Origin: Halorussus marinus
GTDB lineage: Archaea; Halobacteriota; Halobacteria; Halobacteriales; Haladaptataceae
DNA: 64,000 nt
Reading direction: 5' to 3'
NCBI RefSeq assembly: GCF_004765795.1
Contig: NZ_SBIV01000006.1
Location: 1 to 64,000, forward strand
A program made the translations under genes and the position numbers. Under the pieces are notes generated by a model that searched no databases, was not told the DNA's origin, and was given only the letters and a program-made list of their open reading frames with translations. Below, piece after piece: positions 29,937 to 55,026 of this stretch (position 1 is the first letter of the stretch; every line of letters starts with the position of its first letter).

Positions 29937-29968
29937 AATTTAAGTGGAGTGGGGCCGTCGGGTCGCGT

Positions 29969-30172
29969 ATGGCGACCGACCCGCGCTGTCCCGACTGCGG
30001 CGTGACGATGGAAGGCGTCGACGTTCGAACTGGCGGCGGCTACGAACTCAGCGTCCAGACCGACGAGAAGCGCGAGGGCCTGCTGGGGTCGCTCGGGATG
30101 AACGAGTCTCTCGACGTCTCGCCGCGGCTCTGTCCGGAGTGTGGCCTCGTGCGGCTCTACGCCGACCTCTGA
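29969..30172 (+). CDS. CPxCG zinc-finger small protein (copy 1)
   Basis: CPDCG...CPECGLVRLYA. Confidence 0.85.
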   Translation: MATDPRCPDCGVTMEGVDVRTGGGYELSVQTDEKREGLLGSLGMNESLDVSPRLCPECGLVRLYADL

Positions 30173-30228
30173 GCCGGACCGTTCCGAACACCGACACGTT
30201 TTTCGCGCCGCGTCGACGACCAAAGCGT

Positions 30229-30429
30229 ATGGCAGGCGACCCGCGCTGTCCGGACTGCGACGTCGCGCTGGAGGACGCCGAACTGTTCACGGGGCAGGGC
30301 GAACTGCGGGTCAGGACCGAGGCGGACGGCGACGACGTGCTCGCGGCGGTTGGGCTCAAGGAGGCGCTCGACGTGACGCCCCGGCGGTGTCCGGACTGCG
30401 GGCTGGTGCGGTTCTACGCGATCGAGTGA
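30229..30429 (+). CDS. CPxCG zinc-finger small protein (copy 2)
   Basis: CPDCD...CPDCGLVRFYA; ATG at 30229. Confidence 0.8.
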   Translation: MAGDPRCPDCDVALEDAELFTGQGELRVRTEADGDDVLAAVGLKEALDVTPRRCPDCGLVRFYAIE

Positions 30430-30468
30430 GGACCGACAGACCCCGCCGTCGGAACCGAACCGGCGGGA

Positions 30469-30474
30469 TTTAAG
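30469..30474 (+). promoter_or_regulatory. Probable native sucCD TATA box, stranded at attL
   Basis: TTTAAG at -32 to -27 from ATG 30501; the same motif starts at -30 before rps17e (52460). Confidence 0.65.
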
Positions 30475-30500
30475 CGACCGGCGGACGCCGTTTCGAGTGC

Positions 30501-30514
30501 ATGAAGCTCCACGA
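30501..30514 (+). repeat. attL: ATGAAGCTCCACGA (original sucC codons M-K-L-H)
   Basis: 13/14 identical to 41064-41077. Confidence 0.9.
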
Positions 30515-30575
30515 TTTTCATTCATAGGTTGCACGGAACTTTTTTGATTCAGCAGACCGTGTGTGACTTAGCGTC

Positions 30576-31889
30576 ATGACAGCCACGCCCCAAAGCGAAC
30601 TGAAAAGCCGACTTACCACGCTCGCGGAGAGCGCAGAAGACGGCGAAATCGACACTGACGACCACGACGCCATCAAGTCATTCATCGCCGCCTACAACCC
30701 AAACGACCTGCTGGAAACGCCGCCCGGCAACGACTCGACTCTGAAAACCGGAACCTGCAACGTCTACATCTCCCGTCTCACCGAAGCAGCCCGACGAATC
30801 ACGCTCACTGACGCTACCGCTGACGACGTGAACGGGATTCTTCAATCGCTCAGCGACGCTGACCGCTCCGAGTGGACCGTTCACGGCTATTCAACGGCCT
30901 TCCGCAAATTCTACACTTATTACGAGGGCGGACCTGACCCTGACGAGATTACTATGATAGACACGCCGAACGAAAGTGCGTTTAGCCCTGACGATATGCT
31001 TACGCCCGACGAAATCCACGAGTTACTCAACAGCGCCGATAATCCGCGCGACCGCGCCGTATTCGCGCTGCTCATATACACCGGAATGCGGAACAACGCC
31101 CTCCGTACACTCCGCATTGGCGACGTTTATCCACAGGAAGGCGAATGGCAGGTCAACACCGACCGAACAGACGGCCTGAAAGGCGTTGAAAAGTACGGAC
31201 AGCGGCGGCCGCTGTTAGCTGCTGTCAAACCCGTCCGCGACTGGCTTTCCTACCATCCGGAGAGCGACAACCCCGACGCCTACCTCATCACGGGCCGACC
31301 AAAGTACGGGAAGTCTGACCCCTCCAGCCCGGTCGCCGGGTCAACTATTCGGCGCGTCGTTGACCGCCTTGTTGACGCCGCCGACAATCCGTCCATCAAC
31401 CGCAAGCCGACGCACCCACACATGATGCGGCACAATTTCGTCACCATATGTAAGAGAGATTATGGTCTGCCCGACGAAACAGTCAAACATTTTATCGGTC
31501 ATTCGCCCAGCTCGCGGGTCATGGAAACGACCTACTCCCACCTGTCGGATGAAGACCACATCGAGCGCGCCGAGGTGGCGGCAGGACTCCGCGAGCCGTC
31601 CGAGGACGACTCGCCGCTCACGCCCAAAGGTCCGTGCCCGACCTGCGACGAGCCACTTGCTCCCGGCGCGAAGGCGTGTCCCAACTGTGGGCAGGTGTTC
31701 ACTCCCGATGCGAAGGCTATTGAAGACAAAATCGATACCGACCTGAAACAGTCCTACGCCCGAGTGGACCCAGACGACGAAAGCACACAGGAAGCGCTTA
31801 ACGCCCTCGACACACTCACTCAACACCCTGACATCCTTAAGAAGCTCACACAAAACTCTGAAACAATAGAAAAACTCCGTGATAAATAG
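30576..31889 (+). CDS. Tyrosine integrase with C-terminal double zinc ribbon
   Basis: RDRAVFALLIYTGMR, LKG, HPHMMRH, IGH, TTYSH; CPTC...CPNCG. Confidence 0.95.
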   Translation: MTATPQSELKSRLTTLAESAEDGEIDTDDHDAIKSFIAAYNPNDLLETPPGNDSTLKTGTCNVYISRLTEAARRITLTDATADDVNGILQSLSDADRSEWTVHGYSTAFRKFYTYYEGGPDPDEITMIDTPNESAFSPDDMLTPDEIHELLNSADNPRDRAVFALLIYTGMRNNALRTLRIGDVYPQEGEWQVNTDRTDGLKGVEKYGQRRPLLAAVKPVRDWLSYHPESDNPDAYLITGRPKYGKSDPSSPVAGSTIRRVVDRLVDAADNPSINRKPTHPHMMRHNFVTICKRDYGLPDETVKHFIGHSPSSRVMETTYSHLSDEDHIERAEVAAGLREPSEDDSPLTPKGPCPTCDEPLAPGAKACPNCGQVFTPDAKAIEDKIDTDLKQSYARVDPDDESTQEALNALDTLTQHPDILKKLTQNSETIEKLRDK

Positions 31890-31910
31890 AATGGGAGAAG
31901 AGTGACGGGC

Positions 31911-32192
31911 TCAGTCGTCCGCTGCCGTCTCGGCGAGGTACCAACACCTCCAGCAGGCCAGCAGCGCGTCGTGGTCCGACTCGGCCAGCGCGTCCCCGTC
32001 GTTGCGGTCACACCGCGCGCCGTGGTTGAGCCCGAGCGCGTCCGCCCGCTCGACCGCGTCGAACGCCGCCGCGCCGGGCTCCGTCTCGTCGGCCCGCCTG
32101 CCGTCGTCGCGCGGCTCGGGCGCCGCGTCGCGCGCCATTGCCGCCCGCTCACGCCGGTACCCGCGCCGGAGCTCCGCGAGCTCTCGGTCCAT
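31911..32192 (-). CDS. Hypothetical protein (His/Cys, CWRC)
   Basis: 93 aa directly downstream of the SWIM gene. Confidence 0.55.
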   Translation of the reverse strand: MDRELAELRRGYRRERAAMARDAAPEPRDDGRRADETEPGAAAFDAVERADALGLNHGARCDRNDGDALAESDHDALLACWRCWYLAETAADD

Positions 32193-32193
32193 C

Positions 32194-32619
32194 TCAGTCG
32201 TCCCCCTCGACGGTCACACGCCCGCCGTCAGTCGCCACAGCGCCCGTCTCAGCCGTCGCCGCGACCGCCGCCTCGACCCGCGCCCGCCGCTCGTCAAACC
32301 GAGCGATGAGGCGCTCGTCAAACGCGCGCTCGTCGTCCGCCGCATCGAGCACGGCGCCGAGCTGCGCGTCGCGGGCGCCGGTCCAGAATTGGACCCGTCG
32401 GACGTGCTTGCAGCCGCCCTCGGGCGAGCGGTGCTGGTAATCGGGGCAGGTGCAGCGCCCCTCAATGTGGTCGACCTCGTACCGCGTGCCCTCCTCACTG
32501 TAGATTTCGTACACGCCGCCGCCGACCGCGTGGGGCAGCAGGTGCTCGGTGAGAGCGCGCACGTCGCGGGCGTCGAGATTTTCGAGCGTTTCAAGTTCGT
32601 CGGTGGTTTTCTCGCACAT
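32194..32619 (-). CDS. SWIM zinc-finger protein
   Basis: CTCPD-x8-GCKH; ends with 'ATDGG'. Confidence 0.85.
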   Translation of the reverse strand: MCEKTTDELETLENLDARDVRALTEHLLPHAVGGGVYEIYSEEGTRYEVDHIEGRCTCPDYQHRSPEGGCKHVRRVQFWTGARDAQLGAVLDAADDERAFDERLIARFDERRARVEAAVAATAETGAVATDGGRVTVEGDD

Positions 32620-32855
32620 GGGTTCTCAGCTCCGTGAGAAGCCCACCCGGCCGGGCGTGCCAGCGCCCGGGCGTTTTCCGTACCGCCACGCCCCGAGGGC
32701 CGTGTGTTCTCCTCATTTAATTCGTACGTGCGTATTTACCTTAAACCCTGATATCGGCTTCGAAGGATGTTCTTGTGCAATTAGTACGTTTGTGCGAACA
32801 AAGTAATAGGGCGTACATACGAACATTTTTCTGTTTATCGCTCATTCGTGTAAGC

Positions 32856-33131
32856 ATGGGAAACGGGGACCCCGAGAGTAGTAGCGGCCGCCCGCGCCGC
32901 GTCAGCGACGACGACATTCTCCACGCCGTCCGCGAGGTCGCCCGAGAGGACCGCGTCGCCACAACCAGCGAGGTCGAGGACCGCGTCGCTCTCTCCCGCC
33001 GCGGCGTCCAAAAACGCCTACGCGACCTCCACGAGCGCGGCAAAATCCAGAGCAAAGAGGTTGGCGCACGAGGGCGCGTTTGGTGGGTTGAAGATAGTCA
33101 CTTGCCCGACAACGAGGATAACACTGAGTGA
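32856..33131 (+). CDS. Winged-HTH regulator (probable repressor)
   Basis: TTSEVEDRVALSRRGVQKRLRDLHERGKIQSKEVGARGRVWW; divergent from the SWIM gene across an AT-rich spacer. Confidence 0.85.
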   Translation: MGNGDPESSSGRPRRVSDDDILHAVREVAREDRVATTSEVEDRVALSRRGVQKRLRDLHERGKIQSKEVGARGRVWWVEDSHLPDNEDNTE

Positions 33132-33176
33132 GAAGTTAGTCGGGTCGAAAAGGGTCTACCGTCGTCTTCTTACGAT

Positions 33177-33488
33177 TTAATTCTCAGACGTAGCTGATTC
33201 GGGCTCGTGGAGTGTAATTGTTCCATCAGTCTCAACCTGAACAGTGTAACTGTCGTATTTAAACTGGACTTGACCATCTGTGGTACGGGGTATTCCGCTT
33301 GACCGAGGGCCGAAAAGCGCGTCGAGAGCCTCTGGGTCAATGAAATTCGAAAGAACCGCCAACTCGGCCGGTTCAGCATCATTCAATGCGGCAACAGCGG
33401 AGATGAGTTCCTCGCTTACGGATTCTTCTTCGGGATTGCACGTTGTCTGATACGTCGTTGAATTTTCTGTGTTCGAGTCGTTAGTCAT
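33177..33488 (-). CDS. HalOD1 output domain protein (element-borne)
   Basis: IDPEALDALF...VQFKYDSYTVQVETDG. Confidence 0.85.
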   Translation of the reverse strand: MTNDSNTENSTTYQTTCNPEEESVSEELISAVAALNDAEPAELAVLSNFIDPEALDALFGPRSSGIPRTTDGQVQFKYDSYTVQVETDGTITLHEPESATSEN

Positions 33489-33499
33489 GGGGGCTGATA

Positions 33500-34565
33500 C
33501 TCACAGACATAAGTACGTGAAGACATCTGGAACTTCGATCCGATTGAGTGCAGAGAGCGCAGCATCACGAAGATCGTCGAGTGTGTCGAACAGACGGTTT
33601 CCAAGTTCTTGATCGAGTTGTCGCCAGCACTCTTCCGCGGGGTTCAGCTCTGGTGAACCCCGCGGAAGGTAACACAGTTCGATCGGCGTGTCTTCGACGA
33701 ATTCCTGCACTGCGTTGGCCGTAAAATACGAGGCGTTGTCCAAGACAACGCAGATTTTCTCGCCGAACTCGGTTTGGAGGGCGTCTAGCAAGCGAATCGT
33801 CGTGTCGCTGTTGAAGTTCTCGGCACAGGGGAGAAAGAACGTTTCTCCGGAATCGCTGACCGCACCGAGCAGCTTGATGCTGTCCCACGCGCCCGTCACC
33901 GGCAGTGACGGGCGCTCTCCTTCTGGAAACCACGCATAGATCAGCGTCGAGAGTACCTGGCGCGTCTGATCGATGGTCAGGATCGTGTATTCATCGTCCA
34001 AGTTGTCGCGCTTTTTTTGAACCCTTCCTGCCAGGCTTCTTGGGCCCTTTCGTCGGATTTGTAGAACTCCGGCCGGGCTGTCTTCCAGGACAGCCCGGCC
34101 TCAGACATCAATCGTCGGACGTGGCGTTCACAGTACTCAACATCGAATTCTTCGGCAAGGTAGTGACGAGCTAGTGGAACAGACCACGCGGGCGCATCTA
34201 GCCCAGCTTCCTCGGGTGATTCGTGGAGTGCCTCAACGAACTTGTCGTGCTGTTGGCCAGAGAGCTCAGACGGTCTCCCGGAACGGTGTTCGTCGTAGAC
34301 AACCTCCTCGAACGGCTCGTCGGCGAGCCGTTCGAGTCGGTCAAGCCAGCGTGAGAGCCAGCCAGCAGTGTATCCGTAGCGTTCAGCAACATCTTCCATC
34401 GTCGCTTCGTCTTCTTCGAGGGAGTTGATCGCCGCCATAACCCGCTGTGTCGGCTTTTTCCCCTCGACCTCTGCCAAGACCTGGCGGAGGTCGTCGGTAG
34501 ATACGTCGTTGAGGGAAGCCATATCAGAACAACGTCTTCCTATTTGAAAAAGATTCAGCCGTCAG
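33500..34565 (-). mobile_element. IS630-family insertion sequence
   Basis: TA on both sides (33498-99, 34566-67), imperfect ends CTCACAG / CTGACGG, split transposase. Confidence 0.85.
33501..34522 (-). CDS. IS630 transposase in two ORFs joined by a probable programmed -1 frameshift
   Basis: ORF A HTH (33977-34522); ORF B DDE (IDQT, LDNASY, SPELNPAE); A7G slippery site at 34011-34018. Confidence 0.88.
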
Positions 34566-34914
34566 TATGATTACGAGATAGTTAGTTGGCTAATACAAAT
34601 CCATCGGTGATTTTCGCTCAGAATTCTTTTTGATAAAGTGAACGATTTCCTCAAACGCTCACGGTGCGGCATTACTCATCCTCGGCAGCACCCAGCGGCC
34701 ACTCCCCGCGGGCCTTCAGTGTTCACGCGCGGCTCGACCCCGGCGCGGCCCGGTCTGCTCACGCTCAACCCCCGGGGTCCGGCCGCCCGTCACGGGGCTC
34801 GCGCCGCCGCAGTCAGCCGAGTATCCGTCTCGGCGTCCCCGCGGTCGGCGTCGGCGCACCACCGCCGACGCCACCGCCACCACACCACCGCCGCCCCCCG
34901 CCCGAGAGCCGCGC

Positions 34915-35589
34915 TCACGCGCCCGAGGCGTGGTCGCCGAGCGTTGTCTGCCGTTCGAACCGTTCAAGAATATTATACCGCTCACCGCGCGTCACGCTCG
35001 TCGTGTCGACGCTCTCGACCCCGAGCGCCTCAGCCCACGCCAGCGCGTCCGCGAACCCCGCCGCCGGCGGCCGCCCGATATGTACCGACAGCCCCGCGTC
35101 GTGGGCCGCCTCGGTCAGCTCCTCGGCGTGCGACAGCTTCCAGCGGTCCGACCCGCCGATGAACACGGTCGCCGCGTTCACGGCCTCCGCGAGCGCCAGC
35201 ACCCGCGCCGGCGTCATCCCGTCCTGTGCCGCGACCGCTCGGGGCAGCGTCGAGCTCCCGAGCCCCCGCGCGTCGAGCCGCTTCGCGAACGTTCGGGTTC
35301 GCAGCTCCGACGCGTCGGCGTCGCCGACCACGTCCGGCAGCACCACAAACTCCGGCTCGCGCCCGTTCGCGCGCTCCGGTATCTCCTCAACCCGCGACAG
35401 CCACGCGTCCGCCGACCACTCCTCGGGGCGCTCACGCGCCGCGAAACACCCGTTGTCGAGCGCGTAGGGCACGTTCACGCCCGCCGTGAATCGCTCCGGC
35501 AGCCACATCGCGCCGTGACAGTGCGAGGGCGCCGCCGCTCGACACTTCCGCAGCTTCTCGACCGTCGGCACGCCGTGTAAAATCAGCAT
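34915..35589 (-). CDS. TGT-fold transglycosylase, DpdA-like
   Basis: ALDNGCF, LPDVVGD, AQDG, FIGG, VHIG and SVDTTS appear in TGT motif order. Confidence 0.7.
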   Translation of the reverse strand: MLILHGVPTVEKLRKCRAAAPSHCHGAMWLPERFTAGVNVPYALDNGCFAARERPEEWSADAWLSRVEEIPERANGREPEFVVLPDVVGDADASELRTRTFAKRLDARGLGSSTLPRAVAAQDGMTPARVLALAEAVNAATVFIGGSDRWKLSHAEELTEAAHDAGLSVHIGRPPAAGFADALAWAEALGVESVDTTSVTRGERYNILERFERQTTLGDHASGA

Positions 35590-35600
35590 GGGGCGCCGGG

Positions 35601-36206
35601 TTATCGTCGGTCGCCCTCGTCGTCGTCGTCACCCGGCGGCCATTTCCCCCGGCGCTTGAGCCGCTTGCGCTCGCTCTCGTACGCCGGTCGACCGCGCCGA
35701 ACCATCCGCCCGTTCACGTTCAGACGGTCCGGCCCCTCGGGCTCGTCGCCGTCGCCGTCGTCGGCGTTCGCCGAGAGGTTCTCGCTGTATTGCTCCATCG
35801 TCCCATTAATCGCCGCGTCCGAGCCCGAGGCGTCGGCGTTCGCCGAGAGCGCGCCCGGGCCGTCGACGTTGGTCGCGCCGCGTTCACGCGCCGTCCCGGC
35901 GGGCATCCCGCCCGAGTCGTCGTCGCGGTCGAGCTCCTTGACGGCGTCGCGCGACGCCTTCGCGTGGGGGGTTCCGAACCCCGGGCCGGGGATGTCGTGG
36001 CCCGCGACCGCGTTCGCCGCCAGCGTGTTCACGTCGCCGCTCACGGGGCTCGCGCCGGTCATATCCGCCACGATGAGCGCCATATCCCGCAGCACGTCGG
36101 TATCGAACGTGCGGAGGGCGGCCTCGTCGCGGTCGGTGTTCGCCGCGATAGTCTTGATGAACGTCGCTCGCGTCGCGTCGTCGTCGTGGTCGTCGTCGTT
36201 CGTCAT
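35601..36206 (-). CDS. Acidic low-complexity hypothetical protein with basic C-terminus
   Basis: 201 aa from ATG 36206; TTATAA at about 36391 upstream. Confidence 0.65.
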   Translation of the reverse strand: MTNDDDHDDDATRATFIKTIAANTDRDEAALRTFDTDVLRDMALIVADMTGASPVSGDVNTLAANAVAGHDIPGPGFGTPHAKASRDAVKELDRDDDSGGMPAGTARERGATNVDGPGALSANADASGSDAAINGTMEQYSENLSANADDGDGDEPEGPDRLNVNGRMVRRGRPAYESERKRLKRRGKWPPGDDDDEGDRR

Positions 36207-36425
36207 GGTAGTGTCGTGGTGTCGAGGCGCCGCCGGTGCCCGCCGCTCTCGTCGTCGCGCTCGTCGCTGCTCGCGGCTCGGCTCGTCGTCGCTCAACCGC
36301 TGGAGGGCACGCCGTCGCACTCTATCGGGGTGTTACCGCGCCTCAACCATCAGTGTTCCCCACAGAGCCCCGCAGAAACGCCTACTTGCGTTATAACCGC
36401 GTTAAATCCCTTCGTTCAGCTCAGC

Positions 36426-36701
36426 TCAGACCGACAGTAACTCCTCAATATCCTCCTGGTCGAGCTCACCGTCCCGAATCCGCTCCCCAATCGCCTCCGG
36501 GTCGTGTCCACGCGCCCGCAGCTCGCCCCGCACCTCCCGCGGCGCGAACGGCAGTGACTCCGCCAGCACCCGCCACGGCGCGCTCCGCAGCCGCGCCGCA
36601 CGCCGCTCCGACTCGTCCGACGGGTCGAACGCCAGCCGCCCCTCATCGTCTAACAGCGCGCTCCCACTCCCGCTCTCGTCGCCGCTGTCACGGTTACTCA
36701 T
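36426..36701 (-). CDS. Hypothetical protein
   Basis: 91 aa acidic, GAGGTG RBS-like sequence upstream. Confidence 0.6.
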   Translation of the reverse strand: MSNRDSGDESGSGSALLDDEGRLAFDPSDESERRAARLRSAPWRVLAESLPFAPREVRGELRARGHDPEAIGERIRDGELDQEDIEELLSV

Positions 36702-36777
36702 ACCCGCCGCTCACACCTCGACCCCATTGATTCTTCCCCACCGCCGCGAACGTCCGAGCGCCACGCTCACGCCCTTC

Positions 36778-37656
36778 TCACGCGCCCTCGCTCTCACTCT
36801 CGCTCCCGTCCTCGACCTCGGCCTCACCCGCCTCAGCGTCGAGTTCCACGTCGTCGTCGCTCGCCGCCGGCGGGTCCAGCAGCGTCGCCCGGTCGCCCTC
36901 GTTCACATCATCGTCTGACAACCACAACGCGAGCTGCCCGCGCGCTACGTCGTCCTCAATCACATCTGCCGGCGCCTCACCCCGCTGCGCCCACTCCGGC
37001 GGCTCGTCCGGAATCTCCACGTCCGACTGGTCCTCCACGATGGTTTTCCGCGACCGCCACCGGCTAATCTCCCCCACGCGCTCCAGCGCCGCGTCCAGCT
37101 CCTCCGCGTCCCACTCTCCCGACCCCAGCCCACTGTGCTCACGGTCCCCGCTCCCGCCGTGTTCACGCGCCCCTCGGCCCCCGACGCTGTCGCCGCCCCC
37201 GTCGAGGTCGGCGTCGAGCCCGAGCACGTCAGCCCACGCCCGCGCCTCTTTCCCCGCCTTCTCCAACGCCCGCCAATCCTCCTCGCCCGCGTCGAGCAGG
37301 CCACGAACCACTCGGTTCCGTACCACCGACAGGTCCGCCACGAAGTCCTCACGGTCTACGTTCTCCGCGAGATACGTCCGGAGCCGCTTCTTGTCCTTAC
37401 AGATGGTTGCCGCCGACACGTCACACTCCTCTGCCCATCGTGACGGGCTCACGTCGTCCACCGTCGTCGGCCCCGACTCCGACAGCACCAACTCCAGCAG
37501 GTACGCCCGGCGCTCACGCCACCCCATCTCCGCCGGCGCCTTGTCGCCCGGCACGCTCACCTCCATGTAGTCCACACGCGGTCCCTCACCGCCGTCGTCG
37601 TCATCGTCGCTATCGCTCCCGCTCGCCGTGTTCGTGGTCGTGTTCTTCGCCGTCAT
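36778..37656 (-). CDS. HTH-containing protein of haloarchaeal mobile elements
   Basis: ERRAYLLELV...SPSRWAEECDVSAATICKDKKRL followed by helical and acidic regions. Confidence 0.7.
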   Translation of the reverse strand: MTAKNTTTNTASGSDSDDDDDGGEGPRVDYMEVSVPGDKAPAEMGWRERRAYLLELVLSESGPTTVDDVSPSRWAEECDVSAATICKDKKRLRTYLAENVDREDFVADLSVVRNRVVRGLLDAGEEDWRALEKAGKEARAWADVLGLDADLDGGGDSVGGRGAREHGGSGDREHSGLGSGEWDAEELDAALERVGEISRWRSRKTIVEDQSDVEIPDEPPEWAQRGEAPADVIEDDVARGQLALWLSDDDVNEGDRATLLDPPAASDDDVELDAEAGEAEVEDGSESESEGA

Positions 37657-38211
37657 ACTAAACCGATATTTACCGTTTACCGCTCCCGCTCCTTGGGGTT
37701 TCCGCCGCGAGCGGAGCCCACACGCTAAAATTCAGGCATCCCAACGCCGACGAAAGGAGCTCACGATTCCCGCGAATCTATCGTATCCTGCGGCTATTGG
37801 CAGCTTAGGCCCTCATCGACCACTTCAAACTCCAGAGAAAGACATTCAGTGCAGGCAGGGTCGAAAGGTAGCACTTCACCGCTCTTTAAGCGTGCTCTCC
37901 GAGTTTCCCCGCATTGGACACATTCAATCGTAATGACCGTCACTGTTAGACCGTGAATCGCTCGGGAATTATAAATCCGCAGTTGTATTGCGACAGTTGC
38001 ACGGGCAATTCTGACTAATGAAGCCGTGCTACCAATTACGTTTAGTCACACGCTGCGCCCCCGAGCCGCGCGACCGCCTCGACCGCGACCACCACCCACC
38101 CGGAGCGCGAGCAGGAGTGGGGCCAAAGCGCGCTGGCAGGGTAAGATAACCCCGCAGATTTCTCAGCGAGCGCGAGCGGCCCTGAAACGCCGCTCCAAGT
38201 AAGTACAGCAC

Positions 38212-38393
38212 CCCATGCGAAGAACCCATAACTGGCTCCCGCCTCGACCGCTCTCGACCCGGACGCAACCGCCGCGAGAACGGCCACACGCCGCCAGAGA
38301 GCGGCGTGAACACGCCGCGACCCCCGGCGTCTCAAACACGCCACCACCACATTAAGAGAGCTAAGCGGCCCATGCGAAGAACCCCTTACTGGC
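38212..38393. repeat. Two 25-bp direct repeats, candidate origin region
   Basis: CCCATGCGAAGAACCC(ATA/CTT)ACTGGC at 38212-38236 and 38369-38393. Confidence 0.75.
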
Positions 38394-38602
38394 CTCGGTA
38401 CCCGGCCCGCTCGACGCCGTCGACTCGTCGAAACACCCCACACAGAATATGGAATCTCACCGAGCATCTCACTCGACAAACGTGAATCGGCCGAGCAGTT
38501 CGAGCACCCGACACTCTCGACGTGTTCACACGCCGCGCCGAACAGCGCCGCCGCTCGCGACCGCACCGCGTCGAGCCCGGCCGGGGTCACGCGCCCCCGG
38601 CG

Positions 38603-40237
38603 TCAATCCGCCGGCGGTGACTCGACCGGCGGCGGGTCTTCCGGTATCTGCGCCGGCCGCGGCCGCCCGAGCTCCTCCCACTCCTCGCGGGCCTCCCGCA
38701 GCGCGTCGAGCGTCGCGTCGTCACGCGCCTCGACCCACGACTCGTCGCCGAGGTACTCGTCGGCCTCCCACATCGGCCGCAACTGGCCGCGACAGCGGGG
38801 CGCCGAGGTCGAGGTCGACTCAGCGTCGGCCTCGCTCTCGTCGCCACTGCTCGCCCCTGTGGGGTCGTCAACGAACGCCGGCCGATGGTCGCTTCCCGCC
38901 GGCACGTCCCACGCTCTGGACTGCGCCGAGGCGTCCCACGCCTCGGCCTCGGTCGCGTCGAGCTCGCCCGCCGGCGCGGGTGCGTCGTCGCTCCCGTTCC
39001 ACGTCGCCCGCGGCCCGAGGTCGTCGGGCGCCCGCCCGGTGGCAGTCACACCCGACCCCGACGCGACCCGGACCGCCGCCGGCGTCTCGGGTGTCGCGGG
39101 GTCGCGCGGCTCGGCGTCGGCGTCGGCGTGGTCGTGCGCGTCGGCGTCGGCGTCCTCGACCGGCGCCGAGCAGCGGGGTTCGGGAAACTCGACGCCGAGC
39201 ACGTCGGGCGCCGCGGACCGCAGCGCCGCCGTCGCCTCGGCGCGCACGTCGTCGTACGCCTCGAAATTCGCCACCTCACCGAATTGCCGGATTGCCGACC
39301 GAAACGCGCCGTCGTCGCCGAGCCGCAGCCCGGTGTGACTCACCGCGTACAGCGTCGCCCGCGCCAGCGCGACGAGGTCGCGGATAGACGTCGAGGAGTC
39401 CGGGTCGGCCTCGGTGATTCGCTCGACCACCACGCCGGTCTGCTCCTCTATCTCACGCGTCACAGCGCCGCCCTCAACCCAGTCCGAGACGGCGATAACG
39501 TGGAAGTGGGGCGCGTAGACCAGAAACTCGTCGCGGACGGCCTCCCACGTCCAGTCGTCGCTCTCGACCTTCCCGAGCACGTCCGCCCACGTCATATCGC
39601 CGTCGCCCGACTCGTGACCCTTCACCTCGCCGCGATACTCCTCGGTGATTCGCCACGGGTGATAGATTATCGTCCCCGTATCTACACTGATTTGCCGCAT
39701 CAGACGCTTTACGACCTGAAACCCGCGGTCGAGCGGGTCTTTGGCGTTCACGCGGAACCCGATTCCGGCGAGCGAAACCGTGAGGTGGTGTTTCTTGACG
39801 CTCCGGCCGGATTGGGCGCCCCACGTCTTCGCGAGCGACTGGGTTTTGGCGACCGGCTCGACCGCCCGCTGGAACGCCCACGACTGCCAGCAGCGCGGAC
39901 ACCGCGAGCGCCGGCATGTCCGGCCGACCGAGACGGGCTCCCCGCAGTCGCCACAGAACAGCGCCGATATCTCGTCGCCGCAGTCGTCGCCCTTCGCGCC
40001 CGAGCCCGGCGAGACGCCCTCGGTCAGCTCGTCGTCGTACGCTCGACCGTCCGGCTCGCTCACCTCAATCGCGTTCCACGTCTCCCGGTCCGGGTGGAGG
40101 GTCACGCGCCGCCGGTCGTGGTCGGCGTCCTCGGGCGCGTCCGTCTCGAAACACACTGCCGACGCGGTCGAGCTGTCGGCCGCGCGGCTCGACCCCGGCG
40201 TGTCCGGTACGCCCGCCGGCGTCCCCGGTGGGCTCAT
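38603..40237 (-). CDS. HUH-superfamily rolling-circle replication initiator with Cys-rich N-terminus
   Basis: CGDC-x8-C-x4-CPRC; motif I HLTVS, motif II PHFHVI, motif III YAVSH; GGAGGTGA RBS. Confidence 0.8.
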   Translation of the reverse strand: MSPPGTPAGVPDTPGSSRAADSSTASAVCFETDAPEDADHDRRRVTLHPDRETWNAIEVSEPDGRAYDDELTEGVSPGSGAKGDDCGDEISALFCGDCGEPVSVGRTCRRSRCPRCWQSWAFQRAVEPVAKTQSLAKTWGAQSGRSVKKHHLTVSLAGIGFRVNAKDPLDRGFQVVKRLMRQISVDTGTIIYHPWRITEEYRGEVKGHESGDGDMTWADVLGKVESDDWTWEAVRDEFLVYAPHFHVIAVSDWVEGGAVTREIEEQTGVVVERITEADPDSSTSIRDLVALARATLYAVSHTGLRLGDDGAFRSAIRQFGEVANFEAYDDVRAEATAALRSAAPDVLGVEFPEPRCSAPVEDADADAHDHADADAEPRDPATPETPAAVRVASGSGVTATGRAPDDLGPRATWNGSDDAPAPAGELDATEAEAWDASAQSRAWDVPAGSDHRPAFVDDPTGASSGDESEADAESTSTSAPRCRGQLRPMWEADEYLGDESWVEARDDATLDALREAREEWEELGRPRPAQIPEDPPPVESPPAD

Positions 40238-40371
40238 CTGCTCACCTCCCGGTCGCCTTGGTCACCGCGGTTGTGGTCGCTGTCGTCGCGGTCAACGTGG
40301 TTGTTGTCGTCCGTCTCGAAATAAATCGCGCTTCGCGTTGTCGGTCGCCTCCTCGTTATCGTGTCCGGCAT
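40234..40371 (-). CDS. 45-aa ORF overlapping the rep start (ATGA)
   Basis: MPDTITRRRPTTRSAIYFETDDNNHVDRD...; not in the ORF track. Confidence 0.45.
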   Translation of the reverse strand: MPDTITRRRPTTRSAIYFETDDNNHVDRDDSDHNRGDQGDREVSR

Positions 40372-40397
40372 CGACGCGCGCGGGGGGTTGCTCCAAC

Positions 40398-40541
40398 TCA
40401 CTCGTCCGCGACCTCCAATAGCACCTCGGCCACGTCAGAAGCTGGGAGGTCACTTTCGGCGAGGGCTTCGAGGTCTTCTCGGTGCTCGTTGATTCGTTCG
40501 GTGGCGTCGTTCGAGTCGTAGGCGTCGCTGGTCGTGTGCAT
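40398..40541 (-). CDS. 47-aa acidic helical protein
   Basis: MHTTSDAYDSNDATERINEHREDLEALAESDLPASDVAEVLLEVADE*; not in the ORF track. Confidence 0.65.
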   Translation of the reverse strand: MHTTSDAYDSNDATERINEHREDLEALAESDLPASDVAEVLLEVADE

Positions 40542-41063
40542 CTTAGTCGATAGACTGCTTGATAATCACATGACCCGACAGACGGAGGTCGCCCAAATGC
40601 TCAAGAAGCCGGAGATACGACTAACGAACGAACCTCAACCGGTGTCGGTTGTGGGTTCGTTGTCGTCTCCGACGAGCATTCCGCCCGTCTGGGGTCATCA
40701 CGGTGCTGAGCGTCGGGGTGAGGGTTAATCACCGCCACTACCCCGGCGCTTTCTTCCGTTCTGGCGTGTCCTGTTTTGAGAGACGGGTGGGCTCGCGTCA
40801 ACTAAAGCACTGCGCAAGATTCATGGCTCTCAAGGCCTGAGAACGCAGAAATCGCAACTTCGTTGCTAACGCCGTTATCGTATATGTGTCATTACTCTCC
40901 GATAGATTTCAGGAATCTCCATCCAGCAAAAGGACCGAAATGCTAACTTTGTTTGATTCCGGTTGTGGAGACGCCGAGGTAGGCTCGCTTTTGGGGCGTG
41001 GCCTCCTCGGCGGATTCCGATACTACTAACTCTCGTCCGAGGAAAATACCGTGCGAGCCACTA

Positions 41064-41077
41064 ATGAAACTCCACGA
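41064..41077 (+). repeat. attR: ATGAAACTCCACGA (replacement sucC start)
   Basis: Matches 30501-30514 with one synonymous change (AAG/AAA). Confidence 0.9.
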
Positions 41078-42209
41078 ATATCAGGCGAAGAGCGTCTTCG
41101 CCGACGCGGGAATCCCGACCCCCGCGTCGACGTTGGCGTCGTCCGTCGACGAGGTCGTCGAGGCCGCCGAGGAGATCGGCTACCCCGTCGCGGTCAAGGC
41201 ACAGGTCCACGTCGGCGGCCGCGGGAAGGCCGGCGGGATCAAGCTCGTCGAGGACCGCGAGGAGGCCGAGGCGGCGGCCGAGGACATCCTCGGGATGGAC
41301 CTCAAAGGCTACACCGTCGAGGAGGTCCTCGTCGAGGCCGCGGTCGACTTCAAAAACGAGCTCTACGTCGGGGTCACGATGGACCGCGGCGAGGGCAAGC
41401 CCGTCGCGATGGTCTCGACCAAGGGCGGGGTCAACATCGAGGAGGTCGCCGAGGAAGACCCCGACGCCATCGCCCGCGAACACGTCGATCCCGCGTTCGG
41501 GATGCACCCCTATCAGGCCCGGAAGGTCGTCTACGACGCCGGCGTCCCGGCGGCGGTCGCCTCCGACGTCGCGTCGGTCCTGCGGACGCTCTTCCAGCTG
41601 TGGGACGATCGGGACGCCAGCGACATCGAGGTCAACCCCCTGATGGTGACCGAGGACGACGAGATCGTCGCCGCCGACGCGGTCATGAACATCGACGACG
41701 ACGCCCTCTTCCGCCAGCAGGAGCTCGCGGAGATGGAAGAAGAGACCTACGAGGACGACCTCGAGCGCAAGGCCGGCGAGTACGGCTTCGACTACGTCCG
41801 GCTCGACGGCAACACGGGCATCATCGGCAACGGCGCGGGGCTCGTGATGACGACCCTCGACCTCGTCGACTACTACGGCGGCTCGCCCGCCAACTTCCTC
41901 GACATCGGGGGCGGCGCGAAGGCCGAGCGCGTGGCAAACGCCCTCGATATGGTGTTCTCCGACGAGAACGTCGACGCCGTCGTGTTCAACATCTTCGGCG
42001 GCATCACCCGGGGCGACGAGGTGGCGAAAGGCATCAACGACGCCCTCGAACAGTTCGACGAGATCCCCAAGCGCGTGGTCGTCCGGCTCGCGGGCACCAA
42101 CGCCGAGGAGGGCCGCGAGATCCTCAACGACGACCTCGTGACGGTCGAGGAGACCCTCGAAGACGCGGTCCAGCGTGCGGTCGAGTACGCCGAGGAGGTA
42201 GAAGCATGA
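41064..42209 (+). CDS. sucC: Succinyl-CoA synthetase beta subunit
   Basis: [50 protein letters not shown]. Confidence 0.98.
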
Positions 42210-43075
42210 GTGTGCTAGTCGACGAAGACACCCGAGTTATCGTGCAGGGCATCACCGGTGGGGAAGGCAAGTTCCACACCCAGCAGATGATGGAGTACGG
42301 CACCAACGTCGTCGCCGGCGCGGTGCCGGGCAAGGGCGGCCAGGAGGTCGCGGGCGTGCCCGTCTACGACACGGTCGAGCGCGCCGCAATCGAGGAGGAC
42401 GCCGACGCATCGGTCATCTTCGTCCCGCCGGCGTTCGCGGGCGACGCCGTCTTCGAGGCGCTCGACGCCCCGATCGACCTCGCGGTCGCCATCACCGAGG
42501 GCATCCCCACTCAGGACATGGCGAAGGTGAAAAAGCGCCTCTCGGAGGTCGACACCCGTCTTCTCGGGCCGAACTGCCCGGGCATCATCACCCCCGGCGA
42601 GTCGAAACTCGGCATCCTGCCGGGCAACATCTTCGAGTCCGGTAACGTCGGACTGGTCTCGCGGTCGGGCACCCTCACCTACCAGGTCGTCGACAACCTC
42701 ACCTCGCGGGGCATCGGCCAGACCACCGCGGTCGGCATCGGCGGCGACCCCATCATCGGGACGGACTTCATCGACGCGCTCGAACTGTTCGAGAGCGACC
42801 CCGACACCGACGCGGTCGTGATGTGCGGAGAGATCGGCGGCGAGGACGAGGAGGACGCCGCCGCCTACATCGCCGAGCACATGGACACGCCGGTCGCCGG
42901 CTTCATCGCGGGCCGGACCGCGCCGCCGGGCAAGCGCATGGGCCACGCGGGCGCCATCGTCTCCGGTAGCGGCACCGGCACCGCCGAGAGCAAGATCGAG
43001 GCGCTCAACGACGCGGGCGTCCCCGTCGGCGACACCCCGAACGAAGTCGCCGACCACGTCGAGGACTTCCTGTAG
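42206..43075 (+). CDS. sucD: Succinyl-CoA synthetase alpha subunit
   Basis: [31 protein letters not shown]. Confidence 0.98.
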
Positions 43076-54951: not shown

Positions 54952-55026
54952 TGCTCGCTAGGGGATTTGAACCCCTGTCATTGGCTCGAAAGGCCAATAT
55001 GATTGGCCGGGCTACACCAAGCGAGC
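54952..55026 (-). tRNA. tRNA-Glu(TTC)
   Basis: GCTCGCT acceptor stem, anticodon arm TTGGC-CTTTCGA-GCCAA, T-loop GGTTCAAATCC; TTTATAAG about 55 nt upstream. Confidence 0.96.

Follow-up and report, generated by a model that had tools for sequence, protein, structure and literature searches.

The 64,000-nt stretch of Halorussus marinus DNA analyzed here (positions 1 to 64,000 of contig NZ_SBIV01000006.1, RefSeq assembly GCF_004765795.1; hereafter the window) carries a 10,563-bp integrative element directly upstream of sucCD, an operon of the tricarboxylic acid (TCA) cycle. We propose that this element recombined within the first 14 nt of sucC, exchanging one natural sucC leader (type A) for another (type B), and we put the probability of this reading at roughly 0.78. 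On this reading, a classical tyrosine-recombinase element has the start codon of a conserved protein-coding gene as its target and supplies a leader in place of the original one. Few of the archaeal elements described so far integrate at the 5' end of a protein-coding gene, and the locus provides a clean example, with an explicit dyad centred on the start codon, a target in an essential pathway and an element that must bring a working promoter.

Junctions at the start of sucC

The element is flanked by two 14-mers on the forward strand, ATGAAGCTCCACGA at 30501-30514 and ATGAAACTCCACGA at 41064-41077, which are identical at 13 of 14 positions with a single mismatch (G in the left copy, A in the right copy). 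The left copy is the attL core, that is, the first 14 nt of the original sucC, and the right copy is the attR core, with which the rebuilt sucC starts. Followed by TTTTCATTCATAG, the left copy opens an eight-codon remnant open reading frame (ORF; 30501-30527) that reads ATG AAG CTC CAC GAT TTT CAT TCA TAG (MKLHDFHS*). A TTTAAG box is located at 30469-30474, at -32 to -27 from the left ATG. No TTTAAG-type box is present at the equivalent place upstream of the right copy, which opens a complete sucC whose product matches ATP-grasp_2 from residue 2 onwards (E 4.7e-65). A preliminary description of this DNA, made from the sequence alone, had noted the repeats at 30501 and 41064 and had read the left copy as MKLHDFHS* under a TTTAAG at -32, pointing at the integrase gene (int), and the right copy as the start of an intact sucC without a canonical TATA box. 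The sequence and the Pfam matches agree with it on each of these points. In annotations, the short MKLHDFHS ORF should not be called a gene; together with the "promoter" at 30469, it represents an attL scar.

The sequence AATGAAA at 41063-41069 is the exact reverse complement of TTTCATT at 30516-30522. When the two ends of the element are joined via the shared CTCCACGA, these sequences become 7-bp arms around a 9-bp spacer, and the inverted repeat claimed earlier is exact in the joined site. The mismatch between the att cores sits in the left half-site, outside CTCCACGA, which is where it would be expected if strand exchange occurred within CTCCACGA. The G+C content (GC) drops from 0.688 to 0.550 at position 30500 and rises from 0.546 to 0.666 at position 41000; the 10,549 nt between the copies have a GC of 0.643 compared to 0.699 in the flanks. 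Together with the flanking direct repeats, an int gene that starts 61 bp inside the left copy and reads inward identifies a site-specific integrative element. Neither end of the element holds a tRNA gene, the sole tRNA of the window being located at 54952-55026.

We also determined how readily such a pair arises by chance. At up to one mismatch, 0.01 occurrences of the 14-mer are expected per window, and none of 100 shuffled sequences contained two matches; at up to two mismatches, 0.39 occurrences are expected, and at least two matches arose in 8 of 100 shuffles. The repeat alone is only moderately improbable, and it is its position and the comparative data that carry weight. In a general repeat search of the window, the pair was absent among the 20 families listed, which are GC-rich codon repeats.

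In order to find the unoccupied site, we located sucC in 38 of 40 relatives and classified the upstream region in the 29 for which loci were returned, the other nine being unclassified. In the congener G011, the 60 nt before the sucC ATG match the left flank of the window at 56 of 60 positions and the right flank at 32 of 60, and the 60 nt after the 14-mer match the sucC of the window at 53 of 60 positions and the element at 34 of 60. Homology breaks at the core in the same manner in G010, G012, and G018, which makes four relatives with an uninterrupted target site. In G018, a zinc-ribbon gene is followed without interruption by the TTTAAG block and sucC, which matches the left side of the window (query 247-550). 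Compared with the native sucC upstream region of G011, the left flank shows 92% identity, and this also covers 25 nt before the TTTAAG box. None of the 29 classified relatives has element interior beside sucC, the sole match being the last 50-63 nt (41001-41063) at 79-90% identity.

Site-specific integration into the first codons of sucC, as advanced in the preliminary description, thus appears well supported: the junctions, the GC breaks, the relatives with an empty site, and a core found next to a related integrase (see below) all point to it. Public sequencing data touch the same site. A 676-nt contig of the public run X1 is 99% identical to 29984-30506, which extends into the 14-mer, and continues with 153 nt that were not placed; it may stem from a close relative whose site is empty or occupied in another way. 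The joint 30514-41078 was not among the 15 of 164 contig joints listed for four public runs. In contigs of four public runs (other samples), the element interior is essentially uncovered, and an insertion sequence (IS) that it contains is found alone at high depth.

Two native sucC leaders

The sequences upstream of sucC in the relatives fall into two forms, each of which corresponds to one junction of the window. Type A is the form of the left junction, which contains GGGATTTAAGCG and has its TTTAAG box at a distance of 26 nt from the ATG; in the window it occupies 30445-30500 on the forward strand as a host-derived sucC promoter stranded at attL. It was found in 11 of the 29 classified relatives, namely in G010, G011, G012, and G018 of the same genus, in G020, G022, G023, and G024 of the same family, and in G029, G036, and G040 of other families. 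Type B is the form of the right junction, with TTCCGATACTACTAACTC followed by 31 nt to the ATG, and was found in 18 of the 29, comprising 15 of 19 congeners as well as G027, G031, and G033 from other families. In the window, this leader (41006-41063, forward strand) is the other arm of the element (P) and includes CTAACTC at 41026-41032 and the beginning of the left half-site AATGAAA (41063-41069).

The preliminary description had expected relatives to carry sequence of the 30430-30500 type directly before sucC, which is what the 11 type A genomes do, G011 with 56 of 60 positions. It had also named sequence of the 41000-41063 type before sucC in element-free relatives as an observation that would speak against its reading, and this was found as well: the 18 type B genomes carry it there and have no integrase homologue beside sucC. 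In several of these genomes, the gap between the zinc-ribbon gene and sucC is only about 300-850 bp and is therefore too short for an integrase. A comparison of G012 (type A) with G008 and G017 (type B) revealed the same native genes upstream of sucC, with only a block of about 60 nt that differs. No stranded type A block was found near sucC in the type B genomes inspected.

Both forms extend far beyond the genus. A class-wide pattern search identified type A in 238 of 401 genomes and 59 of 91 genera (two hits with a backward-pattern control) and type B in 46 of 401 genomes and 14 of 91 genera (one control hit), each count including the genome of the window itself. These 238 + 46 of the 401 genomes match the start-codon pattern, which shows class-wide conservation of the 14 nt with which sucC begins. 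One genome, G372, matched both leader patterns; its type B match (L138, G372:C6:20336-20381) was rejected as a chance hit, as the ORF behind it (MSLHERLND...) is small and unrelated and the surrounding DNA, on a 29.7-kb contig, is AT-rich. On the basis of this distribution, we consider the sucC leader locus to be dimorphic across the class with both forms native, type A being the own sucC promoter of this host and type B the commoner form in the genus. Such a dimorphism of sucCD leaders in haloarchaea, between a leaderless TTTAAG promoter and a conserved 19-nt motif, is unreported.

The spacing from TTTAAG to ATG in type A is typical of leaderless transcripts. In type B, 54 leaders share TTyCGryACTACTAACTC at about -52 to -32 and a weaker CGAG near -10, and the sequence between them is variable. 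The 19-nt motif is evidently functional, since it is kept before sucC in 14 of 91 genera. It would represent a promoter resembling a B recognition element (BRE) and TATA box that lies about 9 nt further upstream than that of type A and gives a short leader, and it may also hold a regulator site, given its strong conservation. A hairpin in the type B leader, which seemed by eye to covary within the genus, was dropped after RNAalifold had found no consensus structure in the 54 leaders. Over 30300-41400, Rfam returned no match at E <= 1.

We additionally mapped the two labels on a maximum-likelihood tree of sucCD (1.9 kb, 30 genomes). The labels require five changes, compared to a mean of 9.1-9.2 for shuffled labels, and at least four changes are forced by well-supported branches. 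The genome of the window groups with G010 (type A) and G006 (type B). Since related genomes share labels and sucCD itself may undergo recombination, the tree indicates no more than that the two leader alleles are not both monophyletic.

These observations suggest the following history. The integrase would recognise an imperfect dyad (xTGAAx ... xTTCAx) around the spacer CTCCACGA(T), and strand exchange would take place within CTCCACGA, presumably to the right of the single G/A mismatch. In this scenario, the host carried type A, with its TTTAAG 26 nt before a leaderless ATG, an allele that is now found at attL, followed by the eight-codon stub and then by int. The other arm of the element supplies a new upstream region, a copy of the ancient natural type B leader, together with ATGAAA, by which sucCD stays intact. 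Since recombination took place at the core next to int, and the zinc-ribbon gene and sucC are host genes, the type B block must be element-borne. The attP site was probably built from the sucC 5' region of a type B host, and its integration into a type A host would have put one natural allele of the sucC leader in the place of the other. In a type B host, attP and attB would then be identical over about 70 nt, compared to 14 nt in this type A host. An IS630-type insertion would have entered the element later. Elements that target tRNA genes carry a copy of a tRNA end, and this element likewise carries a copy of the sucC 5' region. The promoter swap of the preliminary description consequently stands with respect to topology, as the host TTTAAG is stranded and sucC is rebuilt from element-borne sequence, but not with respect to foreign control, as what the element supplies is a copy of a native leader. 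The expression of sucCD may have changed upon integration, and the element may still be able to excise.

The window may catch such an allele exchange in the act, with an attP that carries a host-derived type B leader and has converted a type A host. If the element body were subsequently lost, the new leader would become fixed, and a plausible route for moving one leader form into the place of the other now exists. That elements of this kind carry alleles of the promoter of a core metabolic operon from one haloarchaeal lineage to another is a more speculative idea, which we regard as rather unlikely at present. Leader switches across the class may have arisen through elements like this one or through homologous recombination between species.

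The integrase and competing readings of the locus

The integrase (30576-31889, forward strand; 437 aa) is a tyrosine recombinase with a C-terminal zinc ribbon, whose cysteines span residues 354-371. It matches PF00589 with 66.5 bits (cut-off 27.1; E 3.3e-18) over profile positions 2-170 of 172 and the integrase family phrog_1 (E 2.5e-28), and XerA/XerC-like chains were matched in PDB. Candidate catalytic residues in the translation are R172 (TGMR), H282 and R285 (HPHMMRH), H309 (IGHS), and Y320 (TTYSH). Against the model for chromosomal XerA (NF040815), it reaches 61.3 bits compared to a cut-off of 220; judged by these scores, it is related to XerA but is not XerA.

The nearest integrase in 185,579 species genomes (L092; 57% identity) lies on a Salinarchaeum metagenome-assembled contig. 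Beside it, we found GAATCTCCACGTTCTTCAT, then GGTTGCACG..TTTTTTG, at the same distance from the int start as in the window and with 82% identity over 45 nt. In the window, the corresponding integrase-proximal arm (P'; 30515-30575, forward strand) comprises the right half-site TTTCATT (30516-30522), the conserved GGTTGCACG, and a T6 run (30540-30545). The presence of the core and of this arm next to the L092 gene shows that they are conserved together with the protein. GAACTTTTTTGA is also found at the metagenomic locus L141. The most similar integrase overall (59% identity) is encoded at L146 on the metagenome contig Ga0075134_101647. In total, the integrase scans yielded two loci in species-genome contigs, one in viral contigs, and six in metagenomes, and the core was detected at L092 only.

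At the class level, integrase homologues (E <= 1e-60) occur in 47 of 401 genomes including that of the window, all others having at most 48% identity, and we inspected the upstream flanks of 29 of them. For nine homologues, the junction is the same, at the 3' end of a gene on the opposite strand that ends in ...IADFM*. At L077, L079, and L081, the integrase abuts the start codon of an opposite-strand rpa-like gene (MGAIEDIYEDL), at L076 it abuts that of an opposite-strand rpoF-like gene starting with MSIFKTKLDEEY, the integrase of L141 adjoins MTIFKEKLDEEY, and at L075 and L078 the homologues are located inside a radical-SAM gene. For L063-L091 and L141, these positions refer to the neighbours of the integrase gene and not to mapped element boundaries. 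They raise the prospect of an integrase family that is specialised on the start and stop codons of housekeeping genes and routinely supplies replacement promoters. Named relatives of the integrase include proteins of Halorubrum tailed virus 27 (42.5% identity) and of Haloferax volcanii pHV4 (39%).

Several observations weigh against the proposed history. At L092, the contig extends just 40 nt beyond the core on its upstream side, where no ATG is present, so that the site may be either attP or attL. No sucC-like core is present in the whole 4,979-nt contig of L146, and the conserved core is thus found in one of two close integrase homologues; target specificity may shift even among the closest relatives of the integrase. 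None of the 29 class-level homologues with inspected flanks has a sucC-like start upstream, and none of the 40 relatives has an integrase homologue (E <= 1e-10) beside sucC, so that no second genome with an element at sucC emerged from these relatives or from the homologues in the 401 class genomes. Codons 2 and 5 of the host gene are AAG and GAA, compared to AAA and GAG in the closest relatives; these differences are synonymous and unexplained. The genome assembly contains no contig with a circular junction or an empty site, which leaves activity unproven, and the IS insertion suggests long residence and possible decay.

The last two points lead to the strongest competing reading, namely that integration was real but left an immobile remnant, with the type B leader nearing fixation and the rest of the element decaying. 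We regard this as a genuine, if lesser, possibility. Besides the IS630-type insertion and the missing circle contig, it is favoured by the single copy of the element in the genome and by the fact that most cargo ORFs belong to no known family. On the other side, the integrase and the replication initiator (Rep) are full-length and free of stop codons, the one difference among 14 positions of the att cores is explained by the position of the crossover, and the GC contrast is still sharp.

A different reading, put forward in the preliminary description, turns the locus into a reversible recombinational switch, in which excision and integration toggle sucCD between two controls and int is driven from the sucC promoter. 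At attL, the type A promoter is indeed oriented towards int, 75 bp before it; once the element is circular, this position would fall to the type B block, and read-through from a sucC promoter into int is conceivable in either state. The integrase is intact, the att sites are near-identical, and the two leader architectures differ, with TTTAAG at -32 in one and a motif that ends at -32 without TTTAAG in the other. However, both leaders are ordinary and widespread, and sucCD is presumably expressed normally under either; sucC itself is never interrupted. The T6 run at 30540-30545, 30 nt before the int ATG, is kept at L092 (32 nt before the ATG) and at L141. Archaeal RNA polymerase terminates at oligo-T, and the run could serve either as the TATA box of a leaderless int mRNA or as an oligo-T terminator. 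As the run separates the sucC promoter from int, it could end read-through or start transcription of int by itself. In addition, the assembly holds no excised form, no directionality factor was identified in Pfam, PHROG, and NCBIfam scans of the element proteins, and an IS is inserted in the element. A metabolic switch would matter if true, but beyond its topology it is unsupported, and we consider it improbable.

The reverse polarity can also be envisaged, in which type B is native in this host and type A with its 14 nt came with the element or the left flank, the true boundaries lying elsewhere. Type B is after all the majority form of the genus (15 of 19 congeners), and a weak similarity (CGGCGG.ATT) is found just upstream of both blocks. 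This reading is nevertheless very unlikely, given that the topology at the core next to int makes the int-distal arm, i.e., type B, element-borne, that the left flank is nearly that of G011, that G018 has the zinc-ribbon gene, type A, and sucC in one contiguous stretch, that the core and the P' arm are kept beside the L092 integrase, and that GC falls exactly at the 14-mers. A coincidental 14-mer pair flanking a low-GC block that arrived by another route, to which only the eight shuffles obtained at up to two mismatches lend some colour, is hardly credible in view of the expectation at up to one mismatch and of copies that coincide with the GC breaks, the integrase, the start codon of sucC, and the homology breakpoints.

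Comparable elements and gene content

The preliminary description stated that haloarchaeal elements mostly target tRNA genes, in line with a review that assigns most archaeal integration sites to tRNA genes (PMC8371274). The few sites inside protein-coding genes listed there, none of them tested, include that of the Halorubrum virus BJ1 in the HMG-CoA reductase gene, and the review asks whether sites in protein genes have dyad symmetry (PMC8371274). BJ1 and the sucC element have in common a haloarchaeal host, a tyrosine recombinase, and an attB inside a housekeeping ORF. For the sucC element, by comparison, an explicit dyad is seen, located in the start codon region, and section 19 of that review does not name sucC as a target.

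According to the same review, elements of the pTN3 type from Thermococcus target the 5' half of a tRNA gene, and the rebuilt gene is expressed from the integrase promoter (PMC8371274). As described there, they resemble the sucC element in that a 5' gene end is targeted, an uninterrupted copy is restored, and the upstream sequence is element-borne. They differ in that the target of the sucC element is a protein-coding TCA-cycle gene, that its integrase is of the "classical" kind and is not split by integration, and that the upstream sequence supplied is a copy of a native sucC leader and not the integrase promoter. Among haloarchaeal pleolipoviruses, integrases of the SNJ2 type use tRNA genes as targets in nearly every case, the exceptions being three intergenic sites (PMC5861418). 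The same study also describes a haloarchaeal module of int and att that moves between unrelated elements and whose specificity tracks integrase subgroups, which is a likeness to the sucC element (PMC5861418). Our integrase falls outside this family, as SNJ2 is absent among the 15 phage records that match it at E <= 1e-5 and no tRNA gene is present at the ends of the element.

Another related concept is that of phage regulatory switches or "active lysogeny", e.g., the comK prophage of Listeria, in which integration inactivates a gene and excision restores it. The sucC element is similar insofar as a prophage-like unit resides in a host gene and excision would restore the native arrangement. In contrast to active lysogeny, integration has left sucC complete from residue 1 and altered only its leader. 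A literature search for a sucC or succinyl-CoA integration site in haloarchaea returned no relevant paper, a result weakened by word-start matching ("success").

At the right end of the element, Rep is encoded on the reverse strand (38603-40237, 544 aa) and represents a rolling-circle replication initiator of the HUH type related to RepA of SNJ1. In tblastn searches, it matched RepA of SNJ1 and of Haloterrigena jeotgali icosahedral virus 1 (HJIV-1) with E 2e-23 and a protein of an 11.6-kb Halobacterium litoreum plasmid with 35.7% identity. BLASTP against SNJ1 RepA gave 30% identity over 352 aa (E 2e-36), with the HxH motif (PHFHVI/PHVHLI) and the catalytic tyrosine motif (YAVSH/YALSH) aligned; no Pfam model matched Rep. 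The kinship with the SNJ1 / pHH205 type is confined to this protein, as the capsid, packaging, and other genes of SNJ1 are absent from the element. In record AY048850.2, SNJ1 is not described as integrating. Element proteins other than the integrase and Rep had no match in SNJ1, the Halobacterium litoreum plasmid, L092, L093, or L094.

Between Rep and sucC, a strong GC-rich hairpin is predicted at 40971-41012 (forward strand), just upstream of the type B block; the fold of 40960-41066 has -44.7 kcal/mol and a z-score of -2.8, and 2 of 200 shuffles were as stable. It might insulate the type B block from element transcription, or it might be a terminator or an arm-type binding region. Downstream of the element, sucC (41064-42209) and sucD (42206-43075) are both intact on the forward strand, with Pfam matches to ATP-grasp_2, Ligase_CoA, and CoA_binding. 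On the other side, the zinc-ribbon gene (29944-30429, forward strand) encodes a 161-aa host protein of repeated CxxC units without a Pfam match and adjoins sucC in genomes of the same genus. It consists of four tandem CxxC..CxxC units of about 130 nt each, which are 73-81% mutually identical. It is syntenic with sucC throughout the genus, at a distance that varies from about 70 bp to 6.6 kb.

The remaining genes of the element lie on the reverse strand. Two small ORFs of 93 and 141 aa with high GC at third codon positions (GC3) follow int (31911-32619), and the 141-aa product matches phrog_17897. Further ORFs of 224, 239, 91, 292, and 182 aa, likewise with high GC3, occupy 34915-38590 and include matches to phrog_15826 and phrog_15023. 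These high-GC3 ORFs belong to no Pfam or NCBIfam family, and the PHROGs that three of them match are of unknown function. A 103-aa protein with a halobacterial output domain 1 (HalOD1; PF18545, E 3.3e-21) is encoded at 33177-33488, beside the IS. The latter (33494-34506) belongs to the IS630 family according to its DDE_3 (E 1.7e-32) and HTH_33 (E 2e-18) matches. Its transposase is split into two ORFs, one with the helix-turn-helix (HTH) part (33977-34522) and one with DDE_3 (33501-34001), which overlap around 33977-34001. The genome contains this IS two more times, with 88% and 83% identity, and metagenome contigs from halite and soil are rich in related copies.

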